Shown: in pieces, positions 47,410 to 62,414 of the stretch
Numbering within the stretch: the first letter of the stretch is position 1
How the letters are laid out: every line of letters starts with the position of its first letter
NCBI GenBank assembly: GCA_963662545.2
Contig: CAXXLL010000002.1
Coordinates: 384,001-448,000 of the forward strand
Length of the DNA stretch: 64,000 nt
Origin: Gammaproteobacteria bacterium
Lineage (GTDB): Bacteria > Pseudomonadota > Gammaproteobacteria > Ga0077536
Direction: 5' to 3'
Notes under the pieces: model-generated
What the model saw: only the letters and a program-made list of their open reading frames with translations
Databases searched by the model: none
Told to the model about the DNA's origin: nothing
Program-made: the position numbers and the translations under genes

Positions 47410-48272
47410 ACGCTAAACATCATATGATCGTGACGCACGAGGTGACGAACGTGGGTCATGACCGAGCGGCGCTCGCCGCCATGGCAAAGCAAGCGAAGGA
47501 AGCACTCGGTGTTGAGCACCTGGAGGTTGTCGCGGACCGGGGTTACTACAGGAGCGAGGAGAGCCTGGCGTGTGATGAAGCGGGGGTCACGACTTATCTG
47601 CCGAAACCCCAGACCTCGGGCAATCTGGCGAAGGGCCTCTTCGGCAAACGGGATTTCATTTATAAGCCCGATGATGACGAATACGAATGTCCGGCGGGAG
47701 AGCGACTGACGCGCCGCACGGAAACACACCAAGACGGATTAACAATCTACCGTTACTGGGCATCGACGTGTGGTTCATGTGCGCTCAAAGGCAAGTGCAC
47801 GACGGGGAAAGAACGACGCGTCAGCCGCTGGGAGCACGAAGCCGTGCTCGAAGCGGTTGAAGCAAGGTTGGACAAAGAGCCCGCGCGCATGCGCGTTCGA
47901 CGACAGACCGTCGAACATCCCTTCGGCACGTTGAAATCCTGGATGGGGTCGACACACTTCCAAATGAAAACGCTGAAGAACGTGGGTACGGAGATGAGTT
48001 TGCACGTGCTGGCGTACAACATGAAACGGGCGATGGCGATACTCGGGGTTGCGCCACTCATAGAAGCGATACAGTCATAGGAACCCGCCTTTTTCCCGAA
48101 ACATCCTCCGGGTGTTGGATAGACCGCGGCGGCGAATGTCCTTCGCCACTTTGGCGTCGAGTTTCTCAAACGCTGTTGGACGCGCAGAATCAGCGCATCG
48201 TGATGACGCCGCTACCAAACAGCCCGGATGAGCCGTCAAGTGCTCCGCAAAGTGAGTTTATGGACAGCCTGG
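47404..48272 (+). mobile_element. IS1182-family 3' half (transposase fragment to 48080) and right end
   Basis: AVDAKHHMIV, ADRGY, YECPAG, RRQTVEHPFGTLK, LAYNMKR; terminal GAGTTTATGGACAGCCTGG. Confidence 0.85.
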
Positions 48273-48288
48273 ACCCATAACGGACATC

Positions 48289-48341
48289 AGCGGTAGCGAA
48301 GAAAGCGGAGCTGTCAAGCGTCGGCCTCATAGGTGTTAGGC
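48289..48341 (-). repeat. Truncated attC (R'' side only) of cassette 1
   Basis: GCCGCCTAAC on the minus strand after the gene stop, complementary to the cassette start GTTAGGCAGC at 48882-48891. Confidence 0.6.
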
Positions 48342-48884: not shown

Positions 48885-49143
48885 GCCTAACGAGGGTGTA
48901 GAAAAAGTCCCGCAATTCGAAAAAGTGCAAAAATTGGGGGTCTCGAAACCATTGCCTTGATCGAGATCGTCGCTTACAGCGCAACTGGGAAGGTCGAATT
49001 TCTCATCGAATTCTCGGATAGACTTATCCTACAACTTCAACGCTAGGATAACCGGCGTGTTACAGCGGGCTCTTTTGGGACGAAAATGCGAAGCCGACCC
49101 AAAAGAGCCCGCTGTAACACGTCAGGTTGATCCATTGTATGGT
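48885..49143 (-). repeat. attC of cassette 2 (~109 bp once the MITE is removed; degenerate R'')
   Basis: Core GTTAGGC on the minus strand; long hairpin CGTGTTACAGCGGGCTCTTTTGGG / CCCAAAAGAGCCCGCTGTAACACG. Confidence 0.8.
48892..49038. mobile_element. 147-bp MITE inserted at the attC core (copy 1)
   Basis: TIR GAGGGTGTAGAAAAAGTC / GACTTATCCTACAACTTC, AAC on both sides. Confidence 0.8.
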
Positions 49144-49155
49144 GAGGCGGATACA

Positions 49156-49575
49156 TTACTCTCGGCATCTTAGCGGTTTGAACCTTATCGGAACTGTACC
49201 CAAAGAACACTGATCCCACGTCTTGTGTTCTGGGTCAAAACGCCAGCCGATGCTCTTTCCCGCGACGTGCTCGTAAACACCTGTAGTTTTCAGTGTTACA
49301 AAGTATGGATTGGAGCCTTCAACGGTGGCGACAAATTCGCCATAGCCGCCTACATTCTTGAGTTCGCTAATATCGGGCATACGTCCAGTTTCTTCATAGA
49401 ACGGCTCAGCCTCCCGTTTGATTCTGTAGAGAATCGTAACGGCTTCTGAAACATGAAACTTTCCTGATGTATCTGGCGAAGGTTGGCTCGGAATCCATAC
49501 CGCGAGAAAGACCGCGGCAATGAATAGTAGGGCGAAAACGTGAAGCGGTTTTATGGGCCCGATCTTCATATCCAT
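49156..49575 (-). CDS. Cassette 2: pilin-like protein lacking a canonical prepilin leader
   Basis: Hydrophobic helix then WIP...VSEAV..L..IK....FYEETGRMP and a C-terminal Cys pair; ATG overlaps the GTTAGAT core. Confidence 0.6.
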   Translation of the reverse strand: MDMKIGPIKPLHVFALLFIAAVFLAVWIPSQPSPDTSGKFHVSEAVTILYRIKREAEPFYEETGRMPDISELKNVGGYGEFVATVEGSNPYFVTLKTTGVYEHVAGKSIGWRFDPEHKTWDQCSLGTVPIRFKPLRCRE

Positions 49576-49580
49576 CTAAC

Positions 49581-49727
49581 GAGGGTGTAGGAAAAGCCCC
49601 ACAGACTGAAAATGTGCCAAATTCGGGGCTCTCGATACCATTACCCTAACCGAGATCGTCGCTTACAGAGCGTCTGACGAGGCCGAATTTCTGAGCGATT
49701 ATTCGCAACGACTTATCCTACAACCTC
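49581..49727. mobile_element. 147-bp MITE inserted at the attC core (copy 2)
   Basis: TIR GAGGGTGTAGGAAAAGCC / GACTTATCCTACAACCTC, AAC on both sides, shares GAGATCGTCGCTTACAG with copy 1. Confidence 0.8.
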
Positions 49728-49828
49728 AACGCTGAGTTAACCGGCGTGTTACACCGGGCTTTTCTGAAGCGAAAATTGCGCAGCTGCGAAAGAAAAGGGA
49801 ATTACGCAGAAAAGTTGACAGCACCTAT

Positions 49829-49993
49829 TTAGGTGACCTCTTTTATGGTCGGCGTCCCGCTGCGATCTGTACGCAAGACAAAGCGTTTATTAACTTCTGC
49901 TTTCGTTGGGCGCTTTGGGCGTCCAGCCGCAGGCTTTACCTTATTCATGCGCTGTAATGCTCTGGTTGATCGATCAAGCGCCTTTTGTTTCAT
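49829..49993 (-). CDS. Small basic passenger ORF (54 aa)
   Basis: MKQKALDRSTRALQRMNKVK...KEVT*, last ORF before the TIR; below the ORF-track size cutoff. Confidence 0.4.
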   Translation of the reverse strand: MKQKALDRSTRALQRMNKVKPAAGRPKRPTKAEVNKRFVLRTDRSGTPTIKEVT

Positions 49994-50020
49994 AATCTGA
50001 ATATTCTAAAAGTGAGAGTC

Positions 50021-50990
50021 TTAATCGACATTATCTTCGTCTGGCGCTTCTTCGATCTGTAGGAGCGTTTGTTGCTTCACGGGCCTGTATTCTAAAACCT
50101 TCACAACATTGTGCTCCGAACTAAGTTTGTCTCCTTTCATGGTCCAAATATCTTCAATCTCACAAATCAAAACATCTGACTTACTGAACGAAACCTGATT
50201 GTTTTTTACCTTTTGAAGGAAATCGAGATCAGCAATCGTGACAGAAACTGTATTGCCCCCGTCATTGAGTCGCCACTTATTTTTCTCTTTAAACGTGAGA
50301 GATTCTATGGAAAATGCACCTTTCCTTGTGTTTCTTAGTATCTCTTCTTCGCCCTCAATCACAGGAAGGGAAAAGTATTCTTTATCTTCTTTATATATTG
50401 TTTCTATGACGTCCTTGCCAGACTGAATAACTAATTGATCTATACCTTCATATATTGTTTCTATGACGTCCTTGCCAGACTGAATAACTAATTTTATCAA
50501 GTGGGGCGGTAACTTTCTCAATCGCCTTACGGATTGAGGTTTCGTTGTACGCCCGCAGCAGGTCTTTCGGCACATCAAACGATTCACCATCAATCTCAAT
50601 GCGAACGGTCCCGTTTTCCAGGTCGGTTACTTTTGGTGCTGGCCGCCCTTTGAGCCTCTTAATAAGTCGAAATAGTCCATAGGTCGTGACACCAACACCA
50701 CCAATAATGATATCTTTGAGGTTTAAAACGGCATTAACCTCATCGCTGTTGAAAAGATCGGTGAACTGACTAAATAAAGATTGAGCCAACCCGATATCAA
50801 CACTAAAACAGCCTGCTTCAACGGCTTTAACGTGCAAGCGAACATCCACCTTGTCCCCATACAAGAGGCGGCTTGTTTCGTCGAATAATTGGGAAAGGGA
50901 GAGCAACGCTGGGGCCAGATCGCGTACGTCCACCGTGTGGTCTTGTAACGCTTCGCCATCAAACACAATGGTAAACGCTTCGTGAGTCAT
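50021..50990 (-). pseudogene. Passenger hypothetical protein split by a 43-bp duplicated insertion
   Basis: Two overlapping ORFs join as ...TAPLDKEGIDQLVIQSGKD... when 50450-50492 is removed. Confidence 0.75.
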
Positions 50991-51014
50991 GCCAATGTGT
51001 GCCTTGACAAGGCG

Positions 51015-51418
51015 TTAGCCAAAGAAAAAAGTGACAAGTGCCTTCTGACTTAATTGCCAGATTTCATAGCGGTCTTTCTTAACATACATCTGGCAAGATG
51101 ATGTCGTCTCATCCCAGACAGGAACAATCACCATTTCATCGGCGAGATAGTCCATGGAATTAACGATAATCGCCTGCTCGCTTTTCTCGAAGGTAACCCC
51201 ACTTACTTGAGGTTACCGCCTTCACATCGAACTACCTTGAACTGAGTACCGAGCCCATTAGAATTTTGGATATCGAAGAGATAGTTCTGGCGCTTGCGCT
51301 GTGGCAGCCTATTCATTTCTGCAACGTCGTTTTTTGCCGCGAGGTATAGTTCCTCGAATTTAGAGCCAAGGTCGCATCTGCCCCGCTCGGCGACCCAGTT
51401 AAAGGATTCGTTACCCAT
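51015..51418 (-). pseudogene. Passenger hypothetical protein with a probable 1-nt frameshift near 51210
   Basis: MGNESFNWV...CEGGN continues in another frame as PQVSGVTFEK...IWQLSQKALVTFFFG*. Confidence 0.5.
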
Positions 51419-52353
51419 CACGATACTAACCTCTCATAGGTGATTGTCTTACCCGACATTGCGCCAAACAAGGCATCTAATCTGCCTTGCGTATCTACTT
51501 CGACGTTGCCTTCATTCAGCCTGAACGAAAACTCGTTAACGTATTTCTGGCAATGCTTCTTGCTCCAGTGGTGATACACGCCGTTGTAGCCGCGCTTAAG
51601 GACCGCCCAGACGCTCTCGATTCCGTTGGTATGTGCCATGCCATTAACGTATTCCTTGGCACTGTGCTTAACGCTCTTGTGGGTGAAAAAGAGACCATCA
51701 AGGTCAGCATACCCTTTGTGATCATCGGTATAAACCGTCGTTCCAACTTCTACGTTTTTGGCGATCTGGCCCTGTAGTGTTTTTTTGTCAATGTTCGATA
51801 TCGGCAGCGCCTTAACCTTCCCGCCGCGCTCACGCAGACCGAGCACCGCCATTTTGCCAACCGCGCCACGGCCAGCGCGGAGTTTCTTGCTGGTGTGTTT
51901 GTTTGACTCTTTGCCGCCGAGGTAGGTTTCGTCTACCTCTACAGCCCCACTCAAGGCTTCCATATCTTCGCCACAGGCCAAACGTAAGCGGTGTAGCATG
52001 TACCAAGCCGTTGTTTGTGTAACAGATAGTTCCTTGCTCAACTGTAGGCTGCTAATCCCTTTACGCGCCGTCATCAGCAAGTATGCGGCAAACAACCACT
52101 TGCGCATATCCACCTTTCCATATTCAAGCGGGGTGTTGGTCCGAGCGGTGAAGTAGCTGCGGCAATACCCACACCAGTAACGGCCGATGTCCTTCTTTTG
52201 CGGTGTGATCTTATCCTCTCCGCCACACCGCACACAGCAAAGCGAATCACCCCAGCGGATTTGCTCAAGGTATTTGATTGCATCCGCCTCGGTTGGATAT
52301 TGCTCCATCAACTCGAAAAGGCTTATTGTTTTTGCTTTTCTGCGTGCCATCAA
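51418..52353 (-). CDS. IS1595-family transposase
   Basis: Zn ribbon CVRC/CGYC, VEVDETY, YTDD, HTNGIESVW, YVNEFSFR. Confidence 0.93.
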   Translation of the reverse strand: MMARRKAKTISLFELMEQYPTEADAIKYLEQIRWGDSLCCVRCGGEDKITPQKKDIGRYWCGYCRSYFTARTNTPLEYGKVDMRKWLFAAYLLMTARKGISSLQLSKELSVTQTTAWYMLHRLRLACGEDMEALSGAVEVDETYLGGKESNKHTSKKLRAGRGAVGKMAVLGLRERGGKVKALPISNIDKKTLQGQIAKNVEVGTTVYTDDHKGYADLDGLFFTHKSVKHSAKEYVNGMAHTNGIESVWAVLKRGYNGVYHHWSKKHCQKYVNEFSFRLNEGNVEVDTQGRLDALFGAMSGKTITYERLVS

Positions 52354-52494
52354 TGTGTCCTTAATGTGTCAGTTAATATGGCTGTATTATAGGGTATACA
52401 AGAGATGTTTGTCAACTTTCCTGCGTAATTCCCAAAGAAAAGCCCGCTGTAACACGTCCGGTTGAACGACTGGTTAGGTCGCACCAGTATTATT

Positions 52495-52968
52495 TTAGGC
52501 ATTCGGTTCGCTGCTCATGATCGGACGCATGATGTCGACGGTACCTCCAACCGAATAATCTTTGAGGATTTTTCGAAATTCAGAGTGTAACCGAGGGTAT
52601 CGCCTAATTATCCGTTCTACGTCTTCGCAGAACGAGACGTAGACGACCTCGTCAACCAGATCGCGATCATGCGAAATTTGAATTTCCATCCAGTGGACGA
52701 GGTACCGCCGCGCAATCGCTTCTAATAGAGCCTCTTCCGTCCTATTTAGCCCATCGTTGTCTTCGAGCTTTCCAAACAACTCCGGGATCAGCGGATTAGC
52801 GAGCATTACCTCCTGCATCCGGTTGAATTCATTCAGGACGCCGGAACTCGCAGCTGCAGTACTTTGCGCGGTGCTTTGTTTGATTTGGAGCGCGAGGTAG
52901 ATCAACGAGATTACCACTGCCACCGATGCGATGATTTCCGCTAATACCCCAAAATCTTGAAGTGACAT
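52495..52968 (-). CDS. Cassette 3: hypothetical membrane-anchored protein
   Basis: AEIIASVAVVISLIYLALQIKQ; bounded by complementary GTTAGGTCGCA / TGCGACCTAAC. Confidence 0.75.
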   Translation of the reverse strand: MSLQDFGVLAEIIASVAVVISLIYLALQIKQSTAQSTAAASSGVLNEFNRMQEVMLANPLIPELFGKLEDNDGLNRTEEALLEAIARRYLVHWMEIQISHDRDLVDEVVYVSFCEDVERIIRRYPRLHSEFRKILKDYSVGGTVDIMRPIMSSEPNA

Positions 52969-52982
52969 AAACGTTTCTTGCG

Positions 52983-54439
52983 ACCTAACGACCCAGCTAA
53001 CCGGCGTTTCAAAATGGGCTTTCTTGGGACGAAAATGCAACGCCGGCACAAGAAAGCCCATTGTGAAACGTCCGGTTCAGCGCCTTGCTGAGGTATCCCC
53101 ACGAATTGGGACTTTTCATGAAGCGAATTCAATCCTTTAGATGATCGACGTGCCTGCTGCTGCCTGATCTAATGGTCGTTACCACACAATCACTTCAATC
53201 AGGAGCAGCAGCATGCACGGCATTAGCTTGTTAAAAAAATGGTGCGAGTGCAATGGCGTCATTGGGCATCGGGCTCGGCTCGATGCCACACTTCGGGTTG
53301 TTGGCGCCCTGCTTGATGGTGGCAAACTGGCCTTAACCCATTTGGGACGTCATCGATCGGGTTCGGCCTTCGTCAAACACCACATCAAAGCCGTCGACCG
53401 TCTGCTCGGTAATCGCCATCTGCATCGTGAACGTCGAGGACTCTATGCGGCCTTTGCACGGACACTCTTATCCACCGTGCGGCGCCCACTGATAGTCGTT
53501 GATTGGGCAGACTGCGAACTCGACCGTGAAATGCTCATCCTCAGAGCCGCCGTGCCCGCCGGCGGTCGTGCAATTACGGTGTATGAGGAAGTCCACCCCC
53601 TCAGTCGCTATAACAGCCCCAAAACCCATCGCGCCTTCTTGAAGGCGCTTCACCACATCGTCCCCGAGAACGTCATCCCTGTCGTCGTCACCGATGCGGG
53701 TTTCCGGGGACCCTGGTTCCGCCAGGTCGAAGCCCTGGGGTGGGATTGGATCGGCCGTATCCGAAACACTATCAAGTACTTCAAACCCGAGACCGGGCGG
53801 TGGTGTTACGTGCATTCACTCTACCCGCAGGCGACACCAAAGGTTCGGCATATCGGTGAGCGGTTGCTCTCCAAACGCCACCGTTACCGCTGTCGCTTAT
53901 ATCTGCTCCGGGCTTATCTGCCGCGTACCGGACGACATGCCCAGCGCAAAAGTTACGGCTCCAATGATGCGCTCTACCGTCGATTACATCGTTCACCGTG
54001 GCTGCTCGCAACCTCTCTCCCGCATACTCGAAACAGCGCTAAGGCCGTCGTGCGTGCTTACCAACAACGCATGCAGATTGAAGAGGCTTTCAGAGACCTC
54101 AAAAACCACCGCTGGGGTTTCGGTTTGCGCTATGCGTGGTCGAGGAATACTCAGCGCCTTGAAGTACTGCTTCTCATCGCGCTGCTCGCAACCCTGCTGC
54201 TGTGGTTGTGTGGGCTCGCAGCGAAAGCTAATCAGTGGACACGGCATTTTCAGGCGAATACCGAACGCAAACGAACCGTGCTATCCATTCCTTTCCTGGG
54301 ACAAGAACTCTGGCGAAGTCATCGATTCAAACTATCTCGCCATGATCTCCAGGACGCATTCATCACGTTACAACAACTCGTTATCTGCGAAGCTCAGTAT
54401 GCCTAATTCGTGGGGATCCTTGAGAACGCCTTGTTAGGC
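52983..54439 (-). repeat. attC of cassette 4, split by IS4 (~111 bp when rejoined)
   Basis: ACCTAAC...CCGGCGTTTCA..ATGGGCTTTCTTG / CAAGAAAGCCCAT..TGAAACGTCCGG...GTTAGGC; same family as the other attCs. Confidence 0.82.
53088..54424 (+). mobile_element. IS4-family element (transposase 53213-54406)
   Basis: TIR CTGAGGTATCCCCACGAATT / AATTCGTGGGGATCCTTGAG, 9-bp TSD A(G/A)CGCCTTG, YREK-type YQQRMQIEEAFRDLK, TDAGF. Confidence 0.92.
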
Positions 54440-57822: not shown

Positions 57823-57990
57823 AAGCGACATTAATAACAGGCGCACCGAGTGGCGATATGAAGGTTCCCTACTTCGCTTTGCTAATCGTACATAAAGGAA
57901 CGACCCCGACCGAGTAATAAATCAACCGCGCCATGTCCGCAGTTGGCCGGGAGCCACCCAACGCCATGTTTGCGTCATCAAACGCTATCG

Positions 57991-58078
57991 GACGACCGCT
58001 TACGAGCGCATTGCAGACGTAACCTAGAGCGGTGCTGCACAGCCGCGATTCGGCCGCTGACGACCCGAAGGCGGCATC
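57991..58078 (+). repeat. Bipartite hairpin repeat, copy A
   Basis: GACCGCTTACGAG...TGCAGACGTAA...GCTGCAC...GGCCGCTGACGACCC..GCGGC shared with copies B and C. Confidence 0.8.
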
Positions 58079-58323
58079 GCTACAGATTAATAAACCTGAC
58101 ACCTATACGTCAGTAACCCGGACCCGGAGGTGCAGGCTGTGTTGTCACCATTGCTGATGTCGCATCGCGATTACAACTATGAAAAATACCTTGAACTTCC
58201 AATCGTCTTCTGAACAACTACGCCGCGGCGATCCGGAGTCTTGCCTTTTGCCCCCTTCCTCGTTTGTTAACGTAACTGGTCAATCGGCCGATAACGTCAA
58301 AATCGACTACGGAGAACGATCGT

Positions 58324-58770
58324 ATGAGACAGTGCTTATTGGCCGCATCGCTTGGCGTGATGGTCATTGCCCAAACGGTTCATGCCGATGTCATTACACT
58401 CATTGACGGCACGCGAATCCACGCCGAGGTGCTCTCCCTGCACAACGGGGTTTACACCGTCCGGAGCGACACGCTGGGGACAGTCGAGCTGGCGCGGTCG
58501 AAGATCGTCACAATCGACCAGAAAAACGCTAAACCGAACGAAACCGATCATACCTACGAGGCGCTCAAGGCCGACGTGATGGCGAATCCCGCAGCGATGA
58601 ACAGCATCATGGCGCTGCAGAATGACCCGGAGGTACGCGCACTATTGAGTAATCCCGAGACCCTGAAAGCCATCCAGTCGTTGGATCTGAACGCTCTCTC
58701 GAACAATCCGCAGATTCTCCAGTTCATGCAGCGGCCCGAGGTCCGGGAAATTAACGAGCTCATGCGATAG
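58324..58770 (+). CDS. Exported hypothetical protein with STI1-like (NP/DP) helical repeats
   Basis: Signal peptide ending VHA-D, DVITLIDG beta domain, MANP/QNDP/LSNP/NNPQ repeats. Confidence 0.7.
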   Translation: MRQCLLAASLGVMVIAQTVHADVITLIDGTRIHAEVLSLHNGVYTVRSDTLGTVELARSKIVTIDQKNAKPNETDHTYEALKADVMANPAAMNSIMALQNDPEVRALLSNPETLKAIQSLDLNALSNNPQILQFMQRPEVREINELMR

Positions 58771-58820
58771 CTGGCGCGAGCGGATGCCCCGCATCATGGT
58801 CACGCCGCCGAACGCTACTC

Positions 58821-58909
58821 GACGACCGCTTACGAGGGTACTGCAGACGTAATCTCTAGCTGTGCTGCACTGCGGCGAGGGGGCCGCTGACGACCCAATA
58901 TAGCGGCCA
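58821..58909 (+). repeat. Bipartite hairpin repeat, copy B
   Basis: GACGACCGCTTACGAGGGTACTGCAGACGTAATCTCTAGC...GGCCGCTGACGACCCAATATAGCGGCC. Confidence 0.8.
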
Positions 58910-59042
58910 CGCCGGCGGGCGACTCTTCGAGCTCGTAGGCGCGCGCGAGGTTCGCGATGTAGTCGGGCGGATGATAATACGAGATGTATTGCAGCGCGTC
59001 CGCCACGCTTTGAATAACGTCCTCCGATCGAATCGCTGTCAC
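58910..59042 (-). pseudogene. 5' fragment (~44 codons) of class I fumarate hydratase
   Basis: MTAIRSEDVIQSVADALQYISYYHPPDYIANLARAYELEESPA matches the Fe-S fumarase N-terminus; similarity ends at repeat B. Confidence 0.8.
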
Positions 59043-59048
59043 GGAGCG

Positions 59049-60914
59049 CTATTCGGGGATCTCGAACGCGATCAGTACGTTTCCGGGCAGCCCAAAATTG
59101 AACTGATCCAAGCCGGATGAAACGTATAAGCGGTTTTTCACGATGACGGGCCCCCCGAACGAGCCGAGCCCCCCACCGAACCCTTTGCGGCCGTTAACCG
59201 TTTCATACTCGCGCACCGTATCAAATGTCCACACCGGCTTCCCGGTCGCGGTATCGTAAGCGCGCAGTACGCCGTCGGCGGTGCCCGTGAAAACGACGTC
59301 GCCCGCCACGGTACTGGGCAAGGTAAAGGCATTGCTGCACGGTGGTGTCGTCTTACCTTTACAATCCGGCGTCATATCCTGTATACGCCATACGGACTCA
59401 CCGGTCAGGAGATCGACCGCCGTGAAGGAGCCGTTCGCCTTCCAGTCCACATCCATATCGATGACGGGTACGTAGGCATTTATGCCGTCGCTCGAGAATC
59501 CCCACTCGATACCGCCGAGCTCTCCGCCGGCGCCGAGGCGGATCTGCCACAGGACTTTGCCGCCGTCATCCGGATCCAGGCCGTAAAGCATGCCGTCCTT
59601 GGATCCGGTCACGATGATCTCCTTACCATCCGATCGTTCCACCAGCACCGCGGGAGCCACGATATCCCGGTCACCATGTCCCGTCGGGTTTAAGGGCGAA
59701 CAGGTTTTCTGTTCGGGATCCACCCACTTTTCGCAGCCCAGGTGGTAGATGTCCTGGCCGCCCATCTGCTCGGGCGCCAGTGATTTCACCCAACGCTTGG
59801 CGCCCGTTTTCATGTCCAACGCCAACATGGCGTCGGATTCGGGCACGACCGGCTCGGTCATCTGGTTGCCGGTTGGCACGTAAAGGAGGCCGCGCTTGTC
59901 GTCGACCGTGACGGCCGAGAACACCACGACCCCCGAGGGACCGTAGCGATTCGTGCCGGCTTTCGTCGTGCCCAGATACCCGAATTCCTTGTCGATGGTG
60001 TAAGACTTCCACTTGCGCTCGCCGGTACGCAGGTCATAGGCGACGATGCTGCCGCGAAACGTACAGCACGGGTATTCCTTATTTTTGCCAATATTGAGCA
60101 CTTCTTGGAGGGAGGACACGGGCACGTAAACCATGCCGTCGTGCGCCGTCACGTTGCCCGTAATGCGTGAAGTCGGCGTCCAATCCGCCCGGTCGCGCCA
60201 CAGCAATTGGCCCGTTTCCGCATCTACAGCGTAGACGTTGGCCGCCGTATCGCCAAACACGGCGATACCGTCGGACACGGCGATGTTCGACCTGATCCGC
60301 CATTCCGCCCGGAATGCCCAGTGCGCGCACCCGGTGTCCGCATCGAGCGAGTAGGCCCATTGATTGAGGTTACCCACGAACAATCGGTCGCCCACGACGG
60401 CGACCGGGTGCCCACCACCCTTGGACGCGTGGACCTGCGGGAAGGCCACGGCCCACTTGACCTTGAGGTTCGCTAACCCCGCAGCGGTGAGCTGCGCATT
60501 AGTCACATGCCGGTTGTAGCGGTTGTCGTTCGACAGTCCAGGCCAGTCATGCTCCGCATCGGGTACCAGCGGCGTCTTGTCTTTGCACATGGTCACGCCG
60601 GCACCGCGCGTGCCCTTTTCGGGTTTGTGCCCCGCGATCCACTTGGCTATCGTCCATCGCTTCGCATCGTCCATGCCATTGGCGAACTGTGCCATGACGC
60701 CGAACCACAGTTCCTTGTGAATTTCCTCTGCAGTCATGTTCGATAATGCCGTCAACGATGGGGAAATTGTGGCGCGCCCGTGGCATTCGATACAGTGTTC
60801 GGCGTACAGTGCGGCGCCGTCCAGTCCCTTCGACTTTTCGGTTGCCGGTTCGGCATACGCTGCGAGCGACGCGAACAGGGATCCAAACAGGGGTAACAGG
60901 TGCAGATTTCTCAT
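59049..60914 (-). CDS. Quinohemoprotein PQQ dehydrogenase (polyvinyl-alcohol-dehydrogenase-like)
   Basis: Signal peptide, CIECH heme c motif, repeated D..TG...W beta-propeller motifs, vicinal CC (CCTFRGS). Confidence 0.85.
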   Translation of the reverse strand: MRNLHLLPLFGSLFASLAAYAEPATEKSKGLDGAALYAEHCIECHGRATISPSLTALSNMTAEEIHKELWFGVMAQFANGMDDAKRWTIAKWIAGHKPEKGTRGAGVTMCKDKTPLVPDAEHDWPGLSNDNRYNRHVTNAQLTAAGLANLKVKWAVAFPQVHASKGGGHPVAVVGDRLFVGNLNQWAYSLDADTGCAHWAFRAEWRIRSNIAVSDGIAVFGDTAANVYAVDAETGQLLWRDRADWTPTSRITGNVTAHDGMVYVPVSSLQEVLNIGKNKEYPCCTFRGSIVAYDLRTGERKWKSYTIDKEFGYLGTTKAGTNRYGPSGVVVFSAVTVDDKRGLLYVPTGNQMTEPVVPESDAMLALDMKTGAKRWVKSLAPEQMGGQDIYHLGCEKWVDPEQKTCSPLNPTGHGDRDIVAPAVLVERSDGKEIIVTGSKDGMLYGLDPDDGGKVLWQIRLGAGGELGGIEWGFSSDGINAYVPVIDMDVDWKANGSFTAVDLLTGESVWRIQDMTPDCKGKTTPPCSNAFTLPSTVAGDVVFTGTADGVLRAYDTATGKPVWTFDTVREYETVNGRKGFGGGLGSFGGPVIVKNRLYVSSGLDQFNFGLPGNVLIAFEIPE

Positions 60915-61135
60915 GGTCCGATCTCCCGACATCGTCTTATTGGATGTTCACCCGAGGGCAGTTCTGAAAGCGTAGCAAATCTCGACGAACACCGTTTATA
61001 TTCGGGACCGCTCTTAGCCGCGAGCCGAAGTCAAGCGCTGCGATGCTTTTTATGAGAAGGGAATGGCCGTTTACGAGGGTATCCCAGACCTAACCTCTAG
61101 CATTGCTGCACTGCCGCGATCCGGCCGCTGACGAC

Positions 61136-61951
61136 CTATTGTGTTGAAAAAGTCCGGTTCGCCGTCGGTCGCGATGTGCGTAGAAAAACCGACCGCGCAG
61201 GATCGCCTGTAAGCGACGATCGGCACTCCGGTAATGGTTTGACGACCCCCAAATTTATCGAAATCCTATGCTGCACGACTTTTTCAACACAATGTGTGCC
61301 ACGAGGCACTGAAGAGATAGGGGGTCACTGAAAGTGTCGTAACTCTAACAGAGATGGAGGTAGGTCCTCCAAAGCCGCCCTGCAGGGGGGGGCTTTAAAC
61401 CACCCTAAGCTGCTCCGGTCAAGAGCCGGGGTGGTGAGCGTTAGGGAAAAGGCGTCGCAAGAGGCGTCAGGTGAGAAACAGAGAGACGAGCGCAAGCGAA
61501 CCACTGCTGAAGCGTCGAAAGAAAAATCGGGTGACATCAAAACCGAGTCTGATTGTGTGGCTCGGGAGGGATCCAGCGGGTGCCTGCTGATTGGCTGGGT
61601 GGTGTCCGGTGTATAGGTGGCGTGACGCTGTTTCGGGCTTTGTTAGGGAACGTGGGAACCTGTCGCTTGGATGTCAAGGGAGAAGTTTAAGTGGTCAACG
61701 CCACGAGAACGAGCGTACCAATGCCAGGCACAGGGGCGGAGCAACTCGTAGTAGTGATGAAGCGGGGTAATGCCCGTGGAGCGAAGGGGTTGCGTCATTC
61801 AGTCTCAGGATTGGGTCAACCCGTCAGGGGAGGAGCCCATGAGTGAGACAAAGCCGTTTCTCGGCTGAATGATGGGAGCCGGATGAGCGGAGACGTTCAC
61901 GTCCGGTTCTACGAGGGCCTCGGGGTGAAACTCCCCGGGGCTACTCACCAG
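61136..61951. mobile_element. ~160-bp MITE related to the attC MITEs, right TIR interrupted by the intron
   Basis: TIR ATTGTGTTGAAAAAGTC / GACTTTTTCAACACAAT^CAG; internal CTGTAAGCGACGATC and AATGGTTT..GACCCCCAA are reverse complements of motifs in the 147-bp MITEs. Confidence 0.78.
61294..61948 (+). ncRNA. ORF-less group II intron (IIB, bacterial class D-like), 655 nt
   Basis: 5' GTGTGC, domain V GAGCCGGATGAGCGGAGACGTTCACGTCCGGTTC (61876-61909), domain VI with bulged A, 3' end ...CTACTCAC, ORF remnant MSETKPFLG* (61839-61868). Confidence 0.92.
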
Positions 61952-62062
61952 ACCCTAAACGGCCATCGGCGAAAATCGAATAACTCATCCTGACAGTTTC
62001 GAGTAGGGGAACTCTTGTCGGCGCGGTATCCTTGCGCCTTGGGTATGCGCGAGGGGTGTCCG

Positions 62063-62407
62063 ATGAAGAAGTTTTTGCTTATTCCTTTGCTGTGCGTTTC
62101 GGGGAATGTCGCGGGGGGAGAGTACGGGGTATTCAAGAGCGGCAACGAATTGTTGTCGGACTGCACCGAGACTTCCCGAGGACTGAATTACATGCACAGC
62201 CTCGGCTACATAGCGGCGGCTGCCGACACCCATGACGTTTGGGTGACCTGGGGCGACTTACACAGAAAAATATGTACGCCATTAGAGGTCCCGCAAGAAC
62301 AGCTCAGGCGCGTCGTCGTGAAGTACCTCGAAGAGCGCCCCGCACTATTGGACACAATGGGCAGCGATGGCATCGATCGCCGTGTGAATGCCAAGCATCA
62401 CGTGTGA
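62063..62407 (+). CDS. Rap1a/Tai4-like immunity protein, C-terminus apparently truncated or replaced
   Basis: Signal peptide, SGNELLSDC, LGYIAAAAD, ICTP.EV..EQLRRVVVKYLEERP; the usual terminal AFPC-type motif is absent. Confidence 0.65.
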   Translation: MKKFLLIPLLCVSGNVAGGEYGVFKSGNELLSDCTETSRGLNYMHSLGYIAAAADTHDVWVTWGDLHRKICTPLEVPQEQLRRVVVKYLEERPALLDTMGSDGIDRRVNAKHHV

Positions 62408-62414
62408 AGGAAGC

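Follow-up and report, generated by a model that had tools for sequence, protein, structure and literature searches.

Integrons are the textbook device by which bacteria stockpile and shuffle single genes, and they are recognized computationally by the structure of their attC sites together with the integrase IntI. Interspersed repeats of the REP/BIME/REPIN kind (repetitive extragenic palindromes, bacterial interspersed mosaic elements and REP doublets forming hairpins) comprise two inverted, short, GC-rich imperfect palindromes around a linker, are associated with RAYT (REP-associated tyrosine) transposases and are preferred targets of insertion sequences (IS). Clusters of attC sites without an integrase are termed CALIN (Cury et al., 2016, PMC4889954). 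Here we analysed a stretch of 64,000 nucleotides (the window; positions 384,001 to 448,000 of contig CAXXLL010000002.1, assembly GCA_963662545.2) from a gammaproteobacterium, which contains three copies of a repeat that we call X. Copies of X delimit modules about the size of one gene, which form co-oriented arrays within variable genomic islands. X is not an integron attC site, and its arrays stand alongside, and apparently independent of, the classical integron of the same genome.

A repeat search of the window returned one direct family with three copies on the same strand, at 57965-58066, 58795-58896 (78%) and 61036-61137 (65%), with a mean column identity of 79% once aligned. All three matched a sequence model built from 30 copies of X (E-values in Table 1), and no fourth X was found in the window with this model, the next-best match having an E-value of 0.04. 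An earlier note made from the DNA letters alone (hereafter the original prediction) had correctly reported three co-oriented copies, but gave their length as ~90 bp, and the full unit in anchored alignments is ~155 nt. One of the two partial units that it listed, at 57933, belongs to copy 1, as its left arm and left part, and is no separate unit, while the other, at 48273, is a real right-arm remnant.

Each X unit begins with a left arm (GATGNCCGCT NNT GGCCGAGAGCCG), directly followed by a left part of ~45 nt that falls into several sub-families, a core of 78 nt in which most positions are 90-100% conserved (GACGACCGCTTACGAG.GCATTGCAGACGTAA ... GTGCTGCACTGCCGCGA ... GGCCGCTGACGACCC) and, after 3-5 variable bases beyond the core, a right arm (AGCGGNC ATC). 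The two ends form imperfect terminal inverted repeats (GATGNCCGCT ... AGCGGNCATC), and either end taken alone is an imperfect palindrome around a centre of 10-12 nt (GNCCGCT - 10-12 nt - AGCGGNC), the heptamer GNCCGCT occurring in X three times directly, spaced ~61-62 nt, and once inverted. Conservation of the core is kept across three species, far above that of the arms. The predicted hairpin survives only in the form of these short inverted repeats: 91-nt folds on either strand (-9.4 to -19.4 kcal/mol; z -1.46 to +0.42) were no better than those of shuffled sequences, and the alifold consensus of 30 copies from three species (-2.74 kcal/mol) showed no covariation, with a compensatory change in 1 of 10 predicted pairs. 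Pairing of the right arm with its own or the next left arm was rejected, complementarity being at the random level (means of 7.46 for own arms, n = 67, and 7.20 for next arms, n = 50, against 7.14 for random pairs; p 0.056 and 0.53). Mutual information among 96 X copies was likewise discarded as a signal, being dominated by IS-bearing sub-families, and a coding role of the core was rejected on stop codons seen by eye in common variants.

Throughout the 5.58-Mb assembly holding the window, a first profile made from the three window copies gave 114 matches (E < 0.001) and a second, made from 96 distinct extended copies, gave 120. Nearly all of the latter (112 of 120) fall into 12 clusters, each with 3 to 33 copies, which together span ~270 kb (~5% of the genome). 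Of 100 neighbouring pairs within clusters, 98 are co-oriented, among them 33/33 in a stretch of 93 kb. The arrays of the two congeners, G001 and G002, are likewise co-oriented.

Mapping of X across other genomes, a check suggested with the original prediction, confined it to the genus. BLAST found X in 3 of 41 genomes, that of the window included and both congeners among them, and the sequence model, run on 81 genomes of the family, found it in 3 (own genome and 2/2 congeners, with 0/78 genomes in 17 other genera). One record with the X pattern was returned by a pattern scan of one genome per species, and a scan of metagenomes gave three pattern matches, one of which was a true X. Judged by these searches, X is specific to a genus of uncultured marine gammaproteobacteria. 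The RpoB of the organism is gammaproteobacterial, with at most 79% identity to named records, and the public runs that contain the window stretch include some labelled as sponge metagenome. A gene for particulate methane/ammonia monooxygenase subunit B (Pfam Monooxygenase_B, E 1e-126; C2:751695-752924; coordinates outside the window are prefixed C2 or C3) lies just past the largest X array and hints at the metabolism of the host.

Modules between X copies, when free of IS, are mostly 0.4-2.5 kb long and often hold one open reading frame (ORF) that fills the space. Cargo lies in both orientations, as had been claimed, the longest ORF being on the same strand as X in 26 and on the opposite strand in 16 of the 42 IS-free modules < 2.5 kb. 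The ORF of Module 1 in the window, labelled an exported protein in the original prediction, has a sub-threshold Pfam match to STI1/HOP DP only. Module 2 carries, besides a pyrroloquinoline quinone (PQQ)-dependent dehydrogenase gene, ~130 nt of sequence downstream of it; a short ORF there (58830-59042) is a weak match to a fumarase N-terminus (Pfam Fumerase, E 0.0056, below the cut-off). This is the fumarase stub of the original prediction, where it counted as a broken neighbouring gene; its identity as a fumarase is a weak call, and since chromosomal paralogues share the stub, it was not necessarily broken by capture. The Rap1a-like gene downstream of copy 3 is also real, but no further X closes it off inside the window.

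Within the genome and among congeners, these modules occur in duplicate, in altered order and at different loci, with the junctions in X. A second copy of the PQQ module (95% identity) lies at C2:682790-685119 among different neighbours, and the module also occurs in G001 between two X copies. One chromosomal paralogue without X (C3:2732103-2734145) is 95% identical to the window module and thus a possible source locus; two further PQQ paralogues match the module to within a few bases of the right arm, and the chromosomal paralogues carry an arm-like GCGCCATCG near the start of their homology to it. Three paralogous PQQ-dependent dehydrogenase genes, each with the same short downstream sequence, were observed within 11 kb at C3:2729857-2740550. 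On a contig of a metagenome-assembled genome (MAG), which is 96-99% identical to the genome analysed, a single X joins sequence of C2:607 kb to sequence of C3:899 kb. At C2:247 kb two modules are arranged in the order B-X-A (read along X), and G002 has A-X-B on a different contig. The orthologous G002 locus lacks modules A and B, and other cargo lies there, bracketed by the same arm motifs; a mini-element of 78 nt bearing X-type arms marks the insertion point both there and at C2:247 kb. The one solo X copy tested showed no empty-site polymorphism and sits at a synteny break.

The genome also encodes two IntI proteins (462.5 and 461.1 bits against a curated cut-off of 265) and has 60 classical palindromic attC sites of ~110 nt (CCTAAC ... 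GTTAGG), folding at -40 to -44 kcal/mol, of which 11 adjoin one IntI gene and 26 form a separate cluster. Both IntI genes adjoin classical attC and neither stands beside any X array. The ends of X (GATGNCCGCT and AGCGGNCATC) lack the R-box triplets (RYYYAAC ... GTTRRRY) and the terminal GTT/AAC, in agreement with the predicted lack of GTTRRRY boxes, and the internal GAACGCTA motif has no inverted partner. Likeness of the X and attC consensus sequences was not significant (score 30, shuffles 24.3 +/- 5.0). An attC profile found a half-site at 1 of 98 downstream and 0 of 101 upstream X flanks, on which grounds we also rejected X as an element inserted into classical attC. In 8 of the 9 clusters that mix X with classical attC, both point the same way, the strand of these near-palindromic sites being called by the better score only. 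By the same convention as for X modules, the longest ORF in classical cassettes is on the same strand in 11 cases and on the opposite strand in 29 (one has no ORF), an orientation bias opposite to that of the X modules. No IntI match was found in either of the X-bearing congeners (assembly completeness 89% for G001 and 95% for G002); G001 has about twelve classical attC matches and G002 none, so that G002 bears X with neither an IntI nor an attC match found. Behind the right-arm remnant of the window (48283-48340), ~55 nt (ATCAGCGG.AGCGAAG.AAG...GTCAAGCGTCGGC...GTTAGGC) resemble by eye the 3' half of the local attC. Among 98 X copies, such an attC-like module motif follows 5 and GTTAGG also 5 (~0.9 expected for GTTAGG), and both together follow 1; these stretches could be rare X/attC hybrid junctions.

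X moreover draws frequent insertions of IS or miniature inverted-repeat transposable elements (MITE), of at least three kinds. An IS or its 149-bp MITE occupies the GACGACCC loop in 39 of 103 X copies, with duplication of GACC, and inserts also at the equivalent GGCCG of the left palindrome. Its transposase (478 amino acids) has DUF772, DDE_Tnp_1 and DDE_Tnp_1_6 domains and belongs to what we take to be the IS1182/IS5 group, which bears out the earlier claim that IS1182-type elements secondarily target the GACCC loop. An IS630-like element inserts in CTAG of the central loop, with TA duplication, another MITE does so in the same loop with a 9-bp duplication, and a further element is inserted at GACG^. 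Half-X fragments ending at the central loop were rejected as signs of a crossover point, since one of the two examined results from the IS630-like insertion and the other from that of the MITE. The IS630-like element also sits in CTAG in G001, as a homologous 1.16-kb segment between half-X fragments. Copy 3 of the window is split by a MITE, a type found at the same X position in other copies of the genome, and by a group II intron (Rfam group-II-D1D4-2, 115.7 bits; domain V/VI, 54.9 bits). Depth of public contigs over the 3' part of this intron is many times that of its flanks, so that the intron is multi-copy, and the 17-nt inverted MITE ends could be a stem-loop of the kind behind which some bacterial introns home. 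The corresponding paralogous junction, at C3:354941, is uninterrupted.

Table 1. Repeat X, its modules, the insertions in it and the classical attC sites of the window (window positions).
Feature	Position	Strand	Remarks
IS/MITE end, then X right-arm remnant	48266..48340	+	Remnant (GACCC ATA ACGGAC ATC) at 48266-48283, then ~55-nt stretch ending GTTAGGC
Four classical attC	49018..53077	+	49018-49128, 49707-49817, ~52410-52483, 52967-53077; family of the IntI-adjacent array; co-oriented with X
X copy 1, complete	57928..58084	+	Left arm ~57933-57945, variable left part, core 57990-58067, loop, right arm ~58070-58080; E 1.5e-32
Module 1	58085..58765	+	One ORF of 148 amino acids (58324-58770), stop abutting left part of X copy 2
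X copy 2, complete	58766..58915	+	Left arm degenerate, overlapping end of upstream ORF; E 7e-30
Module 2	58916..61004	-	PQQ-dependent dehydrogenase with cytochrome c domain (59049-60932; Pfam)
X copy 3, left arm to GACGACC	61005..61137	+	Right arm separated by insertions; E 7.4e-22
MITE, 156 bp	61138..61293	.	17-nt perfect terminal inverted repeats (ATTGTGTTGAAAAAGTC); inserted in GACGACC loop of X copy 3
Group II intron, ORF-less	61294..61950	+	5' GTGTG; D1-D4 match 61356-61472; domain V/VI 61874-61949
X copy 3, displaced loop end and right arm	61951..61972	+	CAGACCC TAA ACGGCC ATC
Rap1a-like immunity-family gene	62015..62407	+	Downstream of X copy 3; Pfam E 3.6e-9; no closing X within the window

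Exchange points were located in seven informative pairs that have the sequence on only one side of an X in common, the border being the change from ~95-100% to family-level identity. Borders fell within X at at least five different positions: immediately past the left arm (one pair), between left arm and core (the MAG contig), in or beside the central loop (two pairs), after GCCGCGA (one pair), between loop and right arm (one pair) and ~35 nt before the right end, at TGCGGCGA (one pair). The breakpoint at a fixed nucleotide for which the original prediction proposed to look was not found in this small sample. Variable borders of this kind appear unlike the single crossover of a site-specific system and would match exchange or conversion between homologous repeats.

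Because exchange points vary and no recombinase or HUH gene tracks the arrays, we favour homology-driven exchange over a dedicated fixed-point recombinase. The best reading, which we hold tentatively, is that modules are shuffled by homology via direct X repeats, on a junction repeat that is protein-bound or was formerly mobile. Recombination between directly repeated X copies would move the modules: a circle with one X would be excised and then re-inserted, Campbell-style, at another X, and since Campbell-type insertion of a one-X circle into X keeps co-orientation, no special enzyme would be needed for it. Recent shuffling would thus be homology-dependent exchange or gene conversion between X copies and not a cut at one nucleotide. 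Less firmly, the terminal inverted repeats (found also on the 78-nt mini-element) and the invariant core may be bound now, or may formerly have been bound, by a putative X-placing protein. Joints in four public runs, made up of short unitig-like contigs that break at repeats, were discarded as evidence of circles or deletions, being explained by paralogous X copies mapping across.

Several points weigh against this homology-driven shuffling. An identity of ~85% over a 78-nt core makes a poor RecA substrate. Homology leaves unexplained how X first came beside new DNA and why cargo borders coincide with 10-nt arms, and conservation of the core well above that of the arms, in three species, suggests protein binding; with first capture, arm-bounded cargo and the conserved core unaccounted for, a dedicated enzyme stays in play. 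The informative pairs number only seven, and a crossover that was fixed at first could have been blurred by subsequent gene conversion. Both congener assemblies are incomplete (89% and 95%). Array segments at C2:2569367-2588166 are identical (100%) to C3:11939-16199 and C3:906-919 kb, which may reflect a recent segmental duplication or assembly redundancy (one locus assembled twice), so that the X copy counts are slightly inflated and not fully independent.

Of the other explanations, the one that survives best takes X as the site of an undescribed integron-independent capture system, in which a trans-acting recombinase or nuclease encoded elsewhere would act on the terminal imperfect palindromes; we regard it as possible but unlikely. 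In one version, equally doubtful, the GNCCGCT boxes of the core would be accessory sites, the enzyme would excise chromosomal fragments and stack them in co-oriented arrays beside the integron, and the variable borders would result from later homologous exchange. The array architecture is as in integrons and arms flank every cargo, including that of the chromosomal mini-site which is common to G002 and holds different cargo in each species. The like layout of both terminal palindromes with the regularly spaced heptamer, the core conserved in three species and the arm-like GCGCCATCG of the chromosomal paralogues would also suit such a system, but breakpoints are not fixed, there is neither fold nor covariation, and complementarity between arms, whether within a unit or within a module, does not exceed that of random pairs.

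No enzyme for such a system came to light. The original prediction had stated that the window holds no candidate, rightly, and had placed one in trans. In the whole genome we counted 35 tyrosine-recombinase matches, including XerC/D-like proteins, the two IntI, P4-type island integrases, IS91-linked integrases and FimB-like proteins, and no tyrosine, serine or HUH gene was found consistently linked to X arrays in this genome and its congeners. A FimB-like recombinase (178-207 amino acids) adjoins two arrays and was rejected, the three paralogues here having only matches of 32-36% in G001 and G002; two of these are intact (C3:1447215-1447751 and C2:486757-487380), and a FimB-like gene at C3:352283-354609 is split by an IS (448-amino-acid transposase) and stops ~290 bp short of the first X in an array of 11 copies. 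Two arrays start with P4-type integrases, which are of the ordinary island kind and have beside them a putative tRNA gene, guessed from ORF translations; the only serine recombinase is a resolvase pseudogene. The ends of the largest array showed no recombinase, with metabolic genes, an IS66-family transposase and a pmoB/amoB-type gene instead. X was also rejected as the end of IS91-type elements inside arrays, where homology between IS copies stops ~1.1 kb from the nearest X. IS91-family copies in which a tyrosine recombinase gene immediately precedes that of the Y2 transposase were observed at C2:613433-629001, C2:1616923-1618303, C3:6876-8301 and C3:922416-923243, all inside or at the edge of X arrays, and one is interrupted by another transposase gene. 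None of seven Y1-transposase loci (PF01797 matches) had X arms or matching flanking palindromes, and the arm pattern occurred in 3 of 70 loci, X-bearing loci only. The proposed mechanism, a cut at one fixed nucleotide by an ssDNA-hairpin recombinase or an HUH enzyme, is thus not supported, given the missing fold and covariation, the variable borders and the lack of a co-occurring gene. What does stand of the proposed cassette-like acquisition outside the integron is its architecture of modular, co-oriented, X-bounded arrays that are re-sorted among congeners.

We consider it improbable that X is instead an interspersed repeat of selfish or structural nature (MITE-, REPIN- or BIME-like) which gathers in accessory islands and has no role in gene movement. 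Its terminal inverted repeats, the sub-families of its left part and the mini derivative with the same ends are what such a repeat would show, as is its use as a preferred target by several IS families, in the manner of REP/BIME, and a dedicated enzyme was not found. The clustering and co-orientation of the copies, however, tell against it, as do junctions between differently arranged relatives that are located in X; no target duplication was seen by eye in the listed flanks of X ends, the tested solo copy at its synteny break gave no empty-site polymorphism, and no RAYT-type gene is flanked by arms. It is very unlikely indeed that X is a strongly diverged family of attC on which the genome's own integron integrases still act, its arrays being CALIN-like: two IntI genes are intact, classical attC are interspersed and mostly co-oriented with X, group II intron and IS elements enter X as they do attC and an attC-like 3' half follows a few X copies, but X lacks R-box triplets and palindrome, folds at -9 to -19 kcal/mol with z ~0 where the local attC reach -40 to -44, scores near shuffles against the attC consensus, has next to no attC half-sites in its flanks, adjoins no IntI gene, shows the opposite ORF bias and occurs in congeners without an IntI match.

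If a dedicated enzyme exists, X arrays would represent a second kind of gene-capture machine; if none does, a private repeat and general recombination would suffice for integron-like arrays, which bears on the origin of cassettes and CALIN. In either case the PQQ module, traceable to a chromosomal paralogue in the same genome, gives a rare handle on where a module comes from. Literature searches for comparable non-attC arrays returned integron papers only, as far as their accessible parts go. With the pdif modules of Acinetobacter (XerC/D) and the rAID-1 arrays of Bacteroidales, X arrays share the principle of non-integron gene units bounded by short recombination sites and, with pdif modules, mutually inverted arms flanking each cargo, whereas X has no recognizable 28-bp Xer-type core with a 6-8-bp spacer, is five times the length of dif and has no linked recombinase gene that we could find. 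MITEs and MITE-flanked composites resemble X in their terminal inverted repeats, length of 80-160 nt, sub-families and shortened derivatives, and pairs of MITEs can bracket and mobilize a chromosomal fragment, with which the PQQ dehydrogenase module may be compared. X differs from them in ends that are less conserved than its interior, in strict co-orientation and in the lack of a visible target duplication, and a search, which was not exhaustive, found no parent or autonomous element with X ends. The inverted GC-rich end palindromes, about a hundred copies per genome and several inserting IS families recall REP/BIME/REPIN, from which X is set apart by clustering, co-orientation, a long conserved non-palindromic core and the absence of a Y1/RAYT gene flanked by arms. 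Sedentary chromosomal integrons and CALIN share with X long co-oriented arrays of one homogeneous, lineage-specific repeat, compact and mostly single-gene modules whose content and order vary among close relatives, a location far from the integrase and repeats colonized by IS and group II intron (PMC4889954). X lacks the palindromic hairpin, R/L boxes, conserved GTT/AAC and covariation, its arrays have neither the integron-type ORF bias nor fixed exchange points, and it occurs in a congener with neither IntI nor attC found, while a true integron coexists in the genome of the window. Integron finders that rely on attC structure and IntI are accordingly not expected to detect X arrays, and a genome with a normal integron also has about twice as many module junctions of this other, unstructured and sequence-conserved type.

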